Source of the DNA: Eledone cirrhosa
Taxonomy: Eukaryota
DNA: 64,000 nt
Direction of reading: 5' to 3'
Assembly (NCBI GenBank): GCA_964016885.1
Contig: OZ024764.1
Coordinates: 8,804,001-8,868,000 of the forward strand
Shown here: one piece after another, positions 4,314 through 59,104 of the stretch
Position numbering within the stretch: position 1 is the stretch's first letter
Layout: the number at the start of each line of letters is the position of its first letter
Program-made: the position numbers and the translations under genes
The notes under the pieces: generated by a model
The model's input: the letters and a program-made list of their open reading frames with translations, nothing else
Told to the model about the DNA's origin: nothing
Databases searched by the model: none

Positions 4314-4379
4314 TATTTTATCTGATGAAAGCGCACCATAATTTACCTTGGTCGCCCTTGAAATATATACAATAAAATA
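4314..4379 (+). ncRNA. Hammerhead motif, same family as 11333, mutated cleavage triplet (ACA)
   Basis: TATTTTAT-CTGATGA-AAG..CTT-GAAA-T-ATAT-ACA-ATAAAATA; flanks are homologous to the 11315-11435 copy. Confidence 0.65.
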
Positions 4380-4563
4380 ATTATGGTTTTATAAATATAG
4401 TTTCCATTTATTAATATATTATATATATATATATATATATATATATATATATATATATATATATATATATATATATATATATATGTAGATAAATCTACCA
4501 AAATGTACGGTAGTGTCCAATCCGTATGAAGAACTCAATGTAATCCAAATATCATTTTACGAA

Positions 4564-4701
4564 TCATTATTTCTGAAGACAGCATATATATGTGTAGGTA
4601 TGTATATTCCCTCTGATAGTTTGTAAAAAATTTACATAGATCTATATGATATACATACCAACACACACATATATATCCTAGAAACGATCGTAAAATGATG
4701 A
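4564..4701 (+). ncRNA. Hammerhead motif with an approximately 100-nt extended stem II
   Basis: TCATTATTT-CTGAAGA...GAAAC-GATC-GTA-AAATGATGA (9-bp stem I with one GU pair). The insert pairs atatatatgtgt/acacatatatat and ggtatgtatat/atatacatacc; the base of stem II is degraded. Confidence 0.6.
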
Positions 4702-7700
4702 ATTTTTTAATATAAGGAACTGTTTCTTTGTTTTCATTCATTATTTTTATTAATTTATATATATATATATATATATATATATATATATATATATATATAT
4801 ATATATATATATATATATATTAGGTATAAACCGACATTGTAGCTGCCATACCGCAGTTACTATTCAAGTTGTTTGAGGCAACCACAAAACACTCAATAGA
4901 GAGGTTTTATTAATACATTATCGTCCAGAGTAAACACAACTGTTTAAAACTATGACACCAAGAAAAATGACCGAAGTCTGTGGCCATATATATACCACAG
5001 CAACGACAAATACAGACAGATTATATATTCAAACACACAGCAAAAGGCTGGAATCGGAATCTGGCCTTTGACCCTAACAAAACAACGGTCAGCTGTTTAA
5101 TAAGACGGAGAAAATGAACAACAAATAAACAATCACACGCCCTTTGACCTGACATACCTCATTTGCATAAACCTATATATATAGATGTGTGTGTGTGTAT
5201 AGATATATATGTGTTTGTGGATAGCCGCGAACCATAACCTTGTACGTTACACATAAACATCTCTCTCTCTCTCTCTCTGTATATATATATATATATATAT
5301 ATATGTCGCCAGCTTCGAACGAGTACAAACATCGTAACACTACAGACATTAAAATACACGCTATATACACATGTATTTATACATTTTTTAAAAGCTATTT
5401 CAATGATTTGCGTTTTTTACTGAAATATAAATATAATTTAAATATATTGATAGGTTCTTTTTTTTTATTTAATTAAATAAAATTTAATTTTATTTAATTT
5501 TATCCTTGTAGTAAAAGGAGGAAATTGTGAAAAAGGTTTACTTTGGGTTCAAGGCTAGCTAACATAGTTGACATGTTTATCTCCCCTTCCCTACTCTCAT
5601 AACATCATGGCGAACTATTTTCTGTGAATAAATATATATATATAGACATCTACATATATAGATATATATGTGTGTGTATGTATGTGTGAGTGCGTATATA
5701 TATATAGATATATATACACATCATCTGTATGTATATATATATACACACAGATATACATCTCTGAATCTCTCCCTTTCTTTCTCTCTCTTATCTCTCTCTC
5801 TATATATATATATACAAACAAACATATATATATAGACATACATACACCACACACATATATATATATATATATATACATACACACATAAATACATACGTGG
5901 TGTGATGATCTCTCTTTCTGTCTATCGCTCCATATAAATACACATATTACATGTATATATAGACAGCTTTATATACACATCCACTTACACATATATATAT
6001 ATATATATTTATTTATTTATATACTCACACACGTATCTATCTATATAGTGAGCTAGACATTGGCCGGAGATCGTTGACTTATATATCAGCGATCTTCGTT
6101 AAAATATATATATCTAACCATCCATCTCTCTCACTCTCTCTCTGTATATATATATAAAAAAATTCGTGACCCCGACGGCTGAGCTCCTGCCGTTCCAACA
6201 GCTAGATCCGAATATATATATATACATACAAACACACATCTCTCTCTCTCTTTATATATATATATATATATATATATATATATATATACATATACACACA
6301 TACACACACACACATGTGGTGTGATCACGATTTTCTGACATTCGGCCAAACGGTTGGGATTTTTTCTACAACAGACCGTCTAAATTAGGTAAGACACACT
6401 TCTAAATTATGCATAATTGTAATGAATTGATTAATAATCCATTAATTAGGAAATGTTATTTATTTAATTGTTAGTTAAATACATCGTTGATGATGTTGGT
6501 GCAGTGGTTGTTGTTATGAATATGTTTCTGTGTGTATATACGGAGATATATATGTCCATGTTTGTATATATATATTGACATGTAGATAGATGTGTATAGA
6601 TAGATAGATATATTTCTTTATTAGCCACAGGGGCACAAAAGAAGGGGACAAATACAAATGGGGAAGTTTACATACAATAAAAACGTGTAAAATGTTATCA
6701 CAGATGGATAGATAGATAGATAGATAGATGTATATATAGAGAGAGATAGATAGATGTATGTGTGTATATATATAGAGAGAGAGATGTATATGTGTGTATA
6801 TATGTATAGAGAGATGTGTAAGTATGTATATATCGATGTGTATATATATATATACACATATACATACAGATGTATGTATGTTTATATATATATATATAGA
6901 TCTATGTATTTATATGTCTATGTATATATCTACGTGTGTGTATGTATGTATGTGTGTATATATCTTTGTATATATGACTATGTGTGAATGTATATATATA
7001 TATATGTATCTATTGTGTACGTGCGTCAAACGACGATCTAAACGTGACCATCTAGTCTATTGTTCATGTATTAGCTGTCATACTTCAATATATATATATA
7101 TATATATATATATATATATATACACGTACGTATCCGTGAGTGTATACATCTATCGATGTATGTATATATGAATTTGTATGTGTTTGTATATATATATATA
7201 TATGTAAGTGTGTGTATATATATATATATATATATATATATATGTAAGTGTGTGTGTATATATATATATATATATATACACACACTTACATATATATATA
7301 TATATTTACTGAGAGATATATATACAGATATATATATATATTGAAGTATGACAGCTACTACATGAACAATAGACTAGTGTGTGTATATATATATATATAT
7401 ATATATATGTATATATATATATATATATATATATATATGTGTGTATATATATATGTATATGTGTGTATATATATATATATATATGTATGTGTGTATATAT
7501 ATATATATGTATGTGTGTATATATATATATATATGTATGTGTGTATATATATATATGTATGTGTGTATATATATATATGTATGTGTGTATATATATATAT
7601 GTATGTGTGTATATATATATATGTATGTGTGTGTATATATATATATATATATGTATGTGTGTATATATATATATATGTATGTGTGTGTATATATATATAT

Positions 7701-56146: not shown

Positions 56147-56442
56147 TATATGTTAGGTTTCCTATTCATTGATTTTTTCTTTATTTTTCATATTTTTGGT
56201 TTTGAATTTTGGATAATTTTAAAAGATTTTTCATGTTTTTTTCTTTTATTACATTTTGATTTTGCTGTTTGAGTGTGAATTTATAATCTAAACATTACAG
56301 TGGATTTATTTTATAATCTAAACCAGAAGTCCTCAAAGTGGGCGCTATTGCCCCTCGGTGGTAAGGTCCAGAGGGGGCTGGAACCTAAGGGGGTGGTAGA
56401 GACGATATAATAGTATATTATATATAAATATAGTAAAATAGT

Positions 56443-56572
56443 GAAGGCGTGTGGCTGAGTGGTAAGGGAATTGGATTCGCAATTGTGAGGTTGTGAGTTT
56501 GACTCCTGGACCAGGCGATGCGTTATGTCCTTGAGCAAGACATTTTATTTCACGTTGCTCCTTCTACCTGGA
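56443..56572 (+). mobile_element. tRNA-derived SINE head
   Basis: A box TGGCTGAGTGG, B box GTTTGACTCC, then ccttgagcaagacatttt. Related copies at about 12857-13010, 17760-17862 (-) and 24985-25130 (-). Confidence 0.7.
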
Positions 56573-59104
56573 GTTGTGACCAATAGATAGTATTAGCAAC
56601 TGGAAAGACCAACAAAAACATTGTTTCCTCGGTCCAATTTGACGAAAGTTGATCTACTGTCGATATATAGTAAAATAAAAAATATATAATATTTATTTAT
56701 ACATCTAAGGCGGGTAAAATTCCCGAGATCCATGGACGAGTTCTCTCCAGCGGTCTCTGTCCCTCATTATCACTGCCATGTCCTGCATCTCCAACAGACC
56801 AGTGTCTGTCCTTAGGGCATCAACATACGTTAACCTTGGTCCATGTAGGGGCTCCCAAAGTATACACTGAGGATGAAAAACTCAGAGCTGTATGGGAGCA
56901 TCCCAAAAGTCAGCTCAAAAATGACACAGAGGAGACTGAGGTTGGCTGGACATGCTCACCGACATCCAGAGTTGACATTATTTATACATAGTGTATATTA
57001 TATTATTTATTATATATAAATATAGTAAAATAAAATATATAATATCTATTTATACATAGTGTATATTATATTATTTATTGTATATAAGTTAATGATTTTA
57101 TTTATTATATATTATTTATAATTTGCGTGTAGGCAGGTCTCACTGGAAATAGGGATGGGGGACATTGAGGGTATTATGTGGCTGTGAGGTGGTTGATGGC
57201 CCAAAAAGATCTGATCTAAACATTGGGGTGGAGTGAAGGCGCGTAACATGTTTGAACTCTTTTCCAACAGTTCATAACTTCAAAGCTGGATGGGGTTACT
57301 AGTTTATTGATGTGACGTTTGTCAATCATATATATATATATTTATATATATATATATATATATACATATAATATATATATATAATATTTATATATATATA
57401 TATATAATATTTATATATATATAATATTTATATATATATATATAATATTTATATATATATATATATAATATTTATATATATATATATATAATATTTATAT
57501 ATATATATATAATATTTATATATATATATATATATAATATTTATATATATATATATATATAATATTTATATATATATATATAATATTTATATATATATAT
57601 ATAATATTTATATATATATATAATATTTATATATATATATATATAATATTTATATATATATATATATAATATTTATATATATATATATATATATTTATAT
57701 ATATATATATATAATATTTATATATATATAATATTTATATATATATATATATAATATTTATATATATATATAATATTTATATATATATATATATATATAA
57801 TATTTATATATATATATATATATAATATTTATATATATATATATATAATATTTATATATATATATATATATAATATTTATATATATATATATATAATATT
57901 TATATATATATATATATATAATATTTATATATATATATAATATTTATATATAAGTGTTGTTAATAAATTTATATACATATATATAGAAGATCCCGCTAAG
58001 GGTGAAAGCAGCGATTCTTTGCTTAAACTTTAATCTGTTATTTTAATAAATATATATATATAGAATTTATATGTGTTGTTAATAAATTTATATATATGTA
58101 TATGTATATATAATATTTATAGATAAGTGTTGTTAATAAATGTTTGTTTAAAAAAACAGGCATTTTACTGAAAAAAACTCAGCACATCAACTGTAGCTGT
58201 GTAAAATATATGTAGCAGTCAACAGGTTAATTAGTCCTTAATCTATCTATCAATCTAGGGCAGGTAAAATAATATGCTATCTTACATCTATTTCCATCTT
58301 TAAGATTCCTACAATTTTACAAAATATTTTATCTTTATTATTTTTTTTTCAGTATTTTTCGTAATTTTGTCGTTTTTATTTAATTTTTGAAAATGTTTTT
58401 GTCATTTTCTGATAATTTAGTTTCTTTAATTGTTATTGTATTATCTGATGCTATTTTTTATGTTGTTGTTTTTTTTAATTATATTTGCTGTGTATTTTGA
58501 TAATTCGTGTTTGTTTGTTTGTTTTTTAAAAAAAACAGTTTGATAATTGTATTTTTGAAAATTTTATTTAATTTATTTTTTTTTATTTTTTTTTTTTATA
58601 CCATTTCGTTAACATTTTTGATAATTTCAAATTTTTTTCTTTTCTTTTTTGTTTTATTTTTCTTTGTTTTTTTTTTCTCTCTTCCCACCCCCATCCCCGT
58701 TCCTCATTAAAAATTAAAAAACATTTTTTTTAACACATTTAATCATTTCACCCTCTTAAATTAATAAATATATATATATATACACACACACACACATACA
58801 TATATATATATACACACATACATATATACACACACACATATACACACACATATATATATACACACACACATATATACACATACACACATATATATACATA
58901 CATAAACACACACACACATATATATATACATACACACACATACATACATACACACACACACACATATACATACACACACAAACGATAATCCCTGCTTCAC
59001 ACACCATCCACCCCCACCACCGTCTATCTGCTCCCTTCCAATATTACCCCTCTATGTGTTTCACTGCTTCTGTAAAACCCACCGACCCTCTCGACCGTTA
59101 ATAG

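Follow-up and report, generated by a model that had tools for sequence, protein, structure and literature searches.

Hammerhead motifs in a 64-kb window of the Eledone cirrhosa genome: probable truncated ends of Penelope-like elements, with enlarged and rearranged forms

Introduction

Hydra-clade Penelope-like elements (PLEs), among them Hydra-1_Obim, are the closest described counterparts of several families reported here: they share with them a C-terminal GIY-YIG endonuclease, a CxCx5C linker without a CCHH finger, (TA)n targets, and a type-I hammerhead near the 3' end with a frequent mismatch at the base of helix II (Craig et al. 2021, PMC8557442). The clade is defined by this linker, the missing CCHH finger, and CxxC and CxH motifs around a conserved E and N, and the Neptune/Nematis elements are defined by a Cx2-5CxxC linker plus a CCHH finger (PMC8557442). 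A hammerhead in the octopus element Hydra-1_Obim has already been published (PMC8557442 File S2). We analysed a 64,000-nucleotide stretch of Eledone cirrhosa DNA (OZ024764.1, 8,804,001-8,868,000, hereafter the window; genome size 3.0 Gb), which contains an EHBP1-like gene and many hammerhead motifs. Its repeats are octopod-like, and its elements resemble published Octopus ones. With considerable confidence, we read these motifs as 5'-truncated 3' ends of Hydra- and Neptune-type PLEs, together with a non-coding tandem family that likely borrows their enzymes, each end carrying a hammerhead predicted to cut the element RNA from a longer transcript.

Several other systems are relevant. Minimal hammerheads of Neptune, Poseidon and Cercyon elements have an absent or palindromic loop III and an extra base after A9, and solitary and inverted copies derived from truncated PLEs have been described (Cervera and de la Pena 2014, PMC4209133). 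Animal retrozymes without long terminal repeats (non-LTR retrozymes) are non-coding head-to-tail repeats of 150-450 bp with one type-I hammerhead per unit (Cervera and de la Pena 2020, PMC7229834). Type-SGC and type-CSG hammerheads have been described by Eckert et al. (2023, PMC10085705); in type SGC, the blocks follow the order site-GAAA-CUGAnGA, a short linker joins stem I to a helix II strand, an extra helix abuts stem I, and helix II forms directly between the GAAA and CUGAnGA blocks. SGC cleavage has been shown, and the published forms come from metatranscriptomes and none from the genomes of known organisms, although the supplement of that paper may list hosts or variants. Naiads, which encode protein and target (TA)n, are described as having no canonical hammerheads, and some are marked "HHR_half_core" (PMC8557442).

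Results

The first-pass annotation of the window had listed eight complete or near-complete type-I cores and several half motifs, and had ascribed them to several high-copy families of non-autonomous, Penelope-type elements. The insertions that we recognised are as follows (window positions, strand).

4280-4498 (+): 3' end of a Hydra-type element related to family A (85% to the family A end, by alignment); hammerhead 4314-4379 with U16.1 changed to C, a change that has likely killed this copy
4563-4791 (+): family F2 3' end, whose type-I hammerhead at 4564-4701 is complete and has a 9-bp stem I and a domain II of 101 nt; predicted cut after 4692 (scan; fold z -4.6)
8563-8663 (-): G-class hammerhead with a ~60-nt domain II, an A6C core and a broken A15.1-U16.1 pair (73 bits with model R1); likely dead
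9391-9482 (both): family E inverted pair of complete short hammerheads with a 4-bp stem III (descriptor scan), 9391-9437(-) with a predicted cut after 9395 and 9436-9482(+) with a predicted cut after 9478
10871-11010 (-): family F1 end, 5'-truncated; full copies elsewhere have a U3-A8 core and a 107-nt domain II
11202-11442 (+): family A 3' end, preceded by an inverted tail; the hammerhead at 11333-11395 is complete, its cut being predicted after 11387
24003-24325 (+): family N, a non-coding tandem element present here as a 5'-truncated monomer; its hammerhead at 24207-24308 is rearranged, with a predicted cut after 24253
25133-25292 (+): truncated end of family G with a short inverted copy; in full copies the core is CCGUCGA and domain II measures 60 nt
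25843-26034 (-): family C 3' end; minimal hammerhead 25940-25975 without loop III, predicted cut after 25944
26085-26190 (+): 3' ribozyme half from a further G-class family, present as a fragment, 79% to a complete copy in locus L191
41400-41615 (-): family H, old and decayed; none of the 14 other loci fetched has an intact GAAA box
42092-42190 (-): family I; complete hammerhead 42125-42175 with a U4A core
42505-42590 (+): decayed relative of family D; a relative in L147 follows a D-like frame
42684-43128 (both): inverted pair of family D, with one complete hammerhead, 42830-42872(-), and one truncated, 42974-43014(+)
54272-54640 (both): family B inverted pair with a one-sided tail; complete hammerheads 54412-54474(-) and 54536-54592(+)
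57985-58072 (+): family I, 5'-truncated within the core
61489-61619 (+): subfamily of family N, truncated, cleavage-site block missing

Six of the eight annotated cores proved complete, namely 11333-11395(+), 54536-54592(+), 54412-54474(-), 25940-25975(-), 42830-42872(-) and 4564-4701(+). The other two were not: 4314-4379 carries the U16.1 change, and in 42974-43014(+) the 3' strand of stem I is mostly missing. The half motif annotated near 9440 was instead the complete family E pair. Of the remaining half or degenerate motifs, those at 10950(-), 25222 and 57985 were 5'-truncated copies with fuller family members elsewhere, that at 26120 was a fragment with one local relative, itself complete, and those at 42545 and 41460-41590 were decayed. 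The motifs 42125-42175(-), 8563-8663(-) and 24207-24308(+) had not been listed. Each of the inverted pairs 54412/54536, 42830/42974 and 9391/9436 represents one insertion. Apart from family N, the complete hammerheads show the type-I blocks CUGAnGA, GAAA and NUH with stems I-III in the order C-G-S, and core variants occur in F1, G and I. CUGAnGA words in EHBP1-like exons and in long interspersed element (LINE) fragments were rejected as hammerheads, as their stems failed. At ~61270-61330(-), a GAAAC-palindrome-GUA half motif with one local relative was seen, and no core was found there.

We examined longer copies of these families upstream of the hammerhead. In family A, the 3' end is common to the copies and lies at (TA)n, the 5' end varies, and an inverted copy or a ~95-nt tail is often present; an inverted partner was present in 9 of 30 loci. 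When five long copies were extended, three ran into reverse transcriptase (RT) and GIY-YIG frames and two into the endonuclease end, and in L031, L034 and L035 the RT + GIY-YIG frame lies ~950 nt upstream of the hammerhead. The family B locus L280 consists of a tail, an inverted end, a truncated Hydra-type frame and a 1.7-kb 3' untranslated region (UTR), followed by the hammerhead. RT and endonuclease frames lie upstream of F1 (L138), a Hydra-type frame ~1 kb upstream of F2 (L161, L168), and a Hydra-type endonuclease ~1.9 kb upstream of G (L137). In family D, an RT + GIY-YIG frame ends ~200 nt upstream in 4 of 20 loci (L061, L064, L066, L070), and in family C a Neptune/Nematis-type endonuclease lies upstream in 7 of 25 loci. 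RT followed by GIY-YIG in one element, as in endonuclease-bearing (EN+) PLEs, was found in L031, L034, L035, L066, L070 and L138. GIY-YIG Pfam matches were obtained for three of five element proteins, all slightly below the cut-off.

The linkers divide these families into two groups. A, B and F1 have a CxCx5C linker without CCHH (that of B read from DNA), family G has C-terminal CxxC/CxH motifs, the only Hydra motifs inside its shown frame, and C and D have a Cx4CxxC linker with a CCHH finger. By these signatures, A, B, F1, F2 and G fit the Hydra type, and C and D the Neptune/Nematis type. The copies also show the tandem or inverted terminal repeats, 5' truncation and one-sided tail of PLEs, and their flanks bear out the annotated (TA)n targets. 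The linked RT/GIY-YIG frames that the first-pass annotation had suggested looking for were found, wholly or in part, for seven of the listed families or subfamilies (A, B, C, D, F1, F2, G), none of which forms a non-coding head-to-tail repeat, and the term "non-autonomous" is not supported for them. For the families at 9440, 41460-41590 and 57985 no frame was found, no search aimed at one having been made. Because longer copies continue upstream into RT/endonuclease frames, the listed motifs are, judged from these sequences, mostly the surviving 3' ends of coding elements, that is, 5'-truncated insertions of coding PLEs. The window does hold a non-coding tandem family (24003-24325), absent from the earlier list.

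PLE hammerheads in truncated and inverted copies in an animal genome are of an already known kind. Families C and D have the loop III and A9 features of the published minimal hammerheads, and no difference from the forms in PMC4209133 was found; the mostly solitary truncated copies, inverted pairs and U3-A8 variant are likewise shared with those forms. Sixteen A-like sequences were selected by homology, the set being reduced from 56 and the query; in their alignment, 93% of 288 cells were paired and 6 of 18 pairs changed on both sides, all in helix II.

Donor-like AG|GUAUG runs were observed ~50 nt before the core in family A (11290-11310) and ~25 nt before it in family B (54517-54535), and family C has an acceptor-like run upstream; these are possible terminal-repeat intron signals.

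The frequency of the motifs was compared with that in shuffled DNA. A strict type-I descriptor found 3 motifs in the window, versus a mean of 0.01 in 100 local dinucleotide shuffles, and a wider descriptor found 8 complete hammerheads versus 0-1 in 30 shuffles; the wider descriptor misses 4564-4701(+), which a third scan showed to be complete. We also sampled 60 evenly spaced 10-kb stretches of the genome (600 kb). The wider descriptor gave 39 motifs (31 short, 8 long), compared with 0-2 in each of six shuffles, and an earlier, narrower one gave 24 short versus 0 and 5 long versus 0-2. The density is ~1 hammerhead per 15 kb, which extrapolates to ~190,000 genome-wide, and PLE frame matches cover 15.1 kb of the sample (2.5%), in 14 of 60 stretches, making PLEs a major repeat class here. 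Initial candidate numbers, not to be read as copy counts, amounted to 1338 (A), 264 (B), 1864 (C), 472 (D), 1325 (F1), 1416 (G), 1747 (H), 1885 (N) and 1984 (Q). Genome sampling and locus comparison uphold the annotated Penelope-type hammerheads in several high-copy families. The proposed Rfam check gave no match at gathering score and no hammerhead family among the best 150 of 615 E-value matches, where only microRNA-model noise appeared.

The enlarged and rewired ribozymes are the less ordinary part of these results. In the half motifs at 10950, 25222 and 26120 we recognise parts of type-I hammerheads whose CUGAnGA and GAAA blocks are separated by a long domain. This domain II measures ~60 nt in the G class, 78-82 nt in the K class (found outside the window only), 97 nt in a further case, and 101-116 nt in F; because helix II is enlarged, standard descriptors and Rfam miss many motifs. 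In the Hydra rows of File S2 of PMC8557442, loop II is at most 10 nt, whereas F1, F2 and G have domains of 60-116 nt, and two plant PLE rows there are marked as deviating, with a loop II of ~30 nt. The U3-A8 or U4C/A6U cores and the 3' UTRs of 1-1.9 kb also differ from Hydra-clade PLEs. Our literature search found no description of such enlarged hammerhead domains; Lunse et al. 2017 may cover core variants.

Between the sister families F1 and F2, whose RT pieces are 74-78% identical, U3-A8 is exchanged for C3-G8, and their folds were more stable than shuffles (z -3.6 and -4.6). We considered whether 4564-4701 was a decayed copy expanded by a microsatellite, and rejected this since the long domain is common to other copies. 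The G inner motif had 3,398 exact matches versus 22 for the reversed pattern, and the G-class model R1 was searched over 97 sequence sources. Among related sequences, 9 of 26 G-class pairs covaried in eight hand-picked sequences and 5 of 10 predicted K-class pairs among six. G and K share a GAGU/AGC inner loop, with an invariant GUA facing GA in K; this may resemble a bulged-G motif. Judged by eye, the G inner loop fitted neither a kink-turn nor a selenocysteine insertion sequence (SECIS).

Further type-I families with a domain II of 59-97 nt were seen at L145:8140-8255, L189:6996-7111, L160 and L098. In addition, 44291-44347(-) and ~6150-6200(-) are ends of an abundant family, with 13 motif matches in the 600-kb sample and a fuller copy at L192:560-760. 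By eye, it has a type-I hammerhead with a 6-bp stem III, a palindromic loop, a ~45-nt loop II and, in at least one copy, a U3-A8 core.

Family N has a different architecture. The window copy lies on the sense strand in the intron after the first EHBP1-like coding exon, and its cleavage site (after 24253) is followed by GAAA at 24270 and then by CUGAUGA at 24297. This order, site-GAAA-CUGAUGA, is non-circular. Stem III (5-6 bp) crosses stem I (7 bp), a 6-bp helix abuts stem I, and helix II is split, both of its usual strands pairing separately with upstream segments around a hairpin. Across 12 sequences, 96.4% of 384 cells were paired and 14 of 32 pairs changed on both sides, with at least one such pair in each of seven helices. 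None of 500 shuffles reached this pairing, and slid controls paired at 30-47%. The 6-bp I-II helix was 93% paired, with two two-sided changes. As direct helix II pairing between the GAAA and CUGAUGA blocks, one pair was found in 11 of 12 sequences. The GAAA-to-core pattern with its fixed 19-nt spacing had 14,828 genome matches versus 1 for the control, from which we estimate about 15,000 copies.

Among 30 family N loci, 10 were head-to-tail and 9 had inverted partners, and arrays reached five units with periods of 445-706 bp. No ATG frame longer than 105 codons was present in the one array checked. Family N is thus, like the animal non-LTR retrozymes, a non-coding head-to-tail repeat with one hammerhead per unit; it differs from the known ones (150-450 bp, type-I) in its longer period, rearranged hammerhead, and PLE-style inverted ends and tails. 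Two families of unrelated sequence, Q (period ~485) and R (~770), have the same block order. Their I-II helix is 7 bp in Q and was not found in one of two copies of R, neither has direct helix II pairs, and upstream walks of both gave tandem units only and no frame.

N, Q and R all show the type-SGC order with stems I and III, and N also has the short linker and the abutting helix of that type. In SGC, however, helix II joins the GAAA and CUGAnGA blocks directly, while here at most one pair joins them and the strands pair upstream. Because the block order is present and the direct helix II is not, we classed family N not as a member but as a variant that, on this comparison, is likely to function as SGC does. 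An additional family-N-like core with a rearranged junction was noted at ~63400-63450(-).

We also inspected by eye 12 published Naiad 3' ends from the PMC8557442 supplement. Six have non-circular block orders: those of Obim, Ovul and Esco fit the order and helices of family N, and three nematode-section entries, printed before Naiad-1_Nbra, Naiad-3_Nbra and Naiad_Hpol, fit the order C-S-G with a direct helix II. Three ostracod entries gave no clear order, and no hammerhead order was recognised in the ends of Omin, Adux and Skow-1. In the Eledone genome, three decayed Naiad-like RT remnants with many stops were present (L366, L367, L368); for two of them the DNA downstream was read, and it showed no recognisable rearranged motif. 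A Naiad-like ribozyme pattern search gave one match without an RT motif nearby, and no Naiad RT motif occurred in the 1.7 Mb of DNA examined. Naiads encode protein; in this genome, family N could be tied to no Naiad frame. F and G were rejected as Naiad ends, since both follow Hydra-type frames. Our literature search found no paper linking SGC or CSG hammerheads to PLEs.

Discussion

The reading that we favour, truncated PLE ends plus a non-coding tandem family, suggests the following course. A tandem or read-through transcript would be cut at the hammerheads, the GIY-YIG domain would nick (TA)n, and the RT would copy the RNA from its 3' end there. The RT would usually stop early, and for this reason only the ribozyme-bearing end would remain. 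Families with a 2-bp stem III and a palindromic loop would plausibly cut as dimers, and family N, with its 5-6 bp stem III, would cut as a monomer and yield RNAs of unit length, which may circularise. Candidate sources of the enzymes for family N are young elements of the Hydra or Neptune type. Scaffolding or protein binding is a likely role for the enlarged helix II and for its split counterpart in N.

A broader reading, which we hold with moderate confidence, is that PLEs carry active hammerheads in new wirings. One would be the order site-GAAA-CUGAUGA, in which helix II is divided to form a four-way junction and which would have spread as a ~15,000-copy retrozyme; the others would be type-I forms with structured domains of 60-116 nt. 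Naiads would use non-circular orders, SGC-like in cephalopods and CSG in nematodes. Self-cleavage would then belong to PLE transposition in general, and host pre-mRNAs could be cut by thousands of sense copies. If this is true, non-circularly permuted hammerheads gain a genomic home and a job, the home being new because published SGC forms come only from metatranscriptomes, and Naiads are removed as the main exception to the rule that PLEs carry hammerheads. The young, near-identical natural copies would offer constructs for testing the role of the PLE ribozyme.

Several observations weigh against these readings. The covariation expected in stems I and II of the A-like set was confined to helix II, with no two-sided change in stems I and III of the 16 sequences. 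Covariation counts were drawn from related sequences, which inflates them, and the higher G-class count (18 of 26 pairs in 42 model-aligned sequences) comes from an alignment fitted to the model. For a G copy, the minimum-energy fold is not the proposed one and is no better than shuffles (z -0.9). The minimum-energy fold of family N also differs from the proposed one and does no better than shuffles (z -1.1), with a folder that excludes pseudoknots, and no coding partner was found for this family. The young G family combines U4C and A6U (CCGUCGA core), and family I has U4A (CAGAAGA); A6 changes reduced activity in tested hammerheads (PMC3088659). Minimal PLE hammerheads cut slowly even as dimers (PMC4209133). 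Two same-strand motifs occurred in only 3 of 30 family A loci, and because copies are mostly solitary or inverted, most have no same-strand partner for a dimer.

Some of these points suit another explanation, in which the hammerhead folds no longer cut and are retained for recognition of the RNA, or priming on it, by the element's protein, the enlarged and rewired domains serving for binding and not for catalysis. The core changes in young, expanding families (CCGUCGA in G, CAGAAGA in I), the sense copy of N within the EHBP1-like intron and the low activity reported for PLE hammerheads (PMC4209133) agree with it. Against this, G5, G8 (or the U3-A8 swap), G12, A13, A14 and A15.1-U16.1 are conserved across otherwise dissimilar families, and related rearranged ribozymes cut in vitro (PMC10085705). 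We regard this explanation as unlikely.

The original proposal, that all listed motifs are non-autonomous retrozymes without coding capacity, we consider very unlikely. Most copies are indeed short and frameless, the window has a genuine non-coding tandem family, and animal retrozymes derive from PLE ends (bioRxiv 10.64898/2026.07.22.740005). The seven listed families or subfamilies nevertheless reach RT/endonuclease frames and have shared 3' UTRs and truncation-like variable 5' ends, and the upstream frames rule the proposal out for A, B, C, D, F1, F2 and G.

That the family N structure is an artefact of tandem-repeat reading or of a flexible descriptor, as its differing nested minimum-energy fold and the small descriptor margin (3 matches in 600 kb versus 0-1 in 10 shuffles, simple repeats matching too) might suggest, is still harder to credit given the fixed 19-nt spacing, the pairs changed on both sides in each of the seven helices, the recurrence of this block order in the unrelated Q and R, and the fact that a canonical order would require blocks from three units, more than 1 kb apart.

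Other features of the window

The setting of the motifs is the following gene.

23715-59554 (+): EHBP1-like host gene, coding exons seen (exon translations; NT-C2 and CH matches)

The CH domain was matched, the NT-C2 match was below the cut-off, and the first coding exon lies near 23715, so motifs left of ~23700 are upstream of the coding region. LINE-like RT fragments occupy 28257-31602 inside an EHBP1-like intron, one frame having 482 codons. Further LINE fragments at 11985-12560, 20980-21711 and 45438-46775, the last with an internal tandem amplification, are presumably RTE-like. A 63-bp tandem repeat forms two arrays of the same unit, at 1664-3184 and 55001-55966, as read from frame translations.

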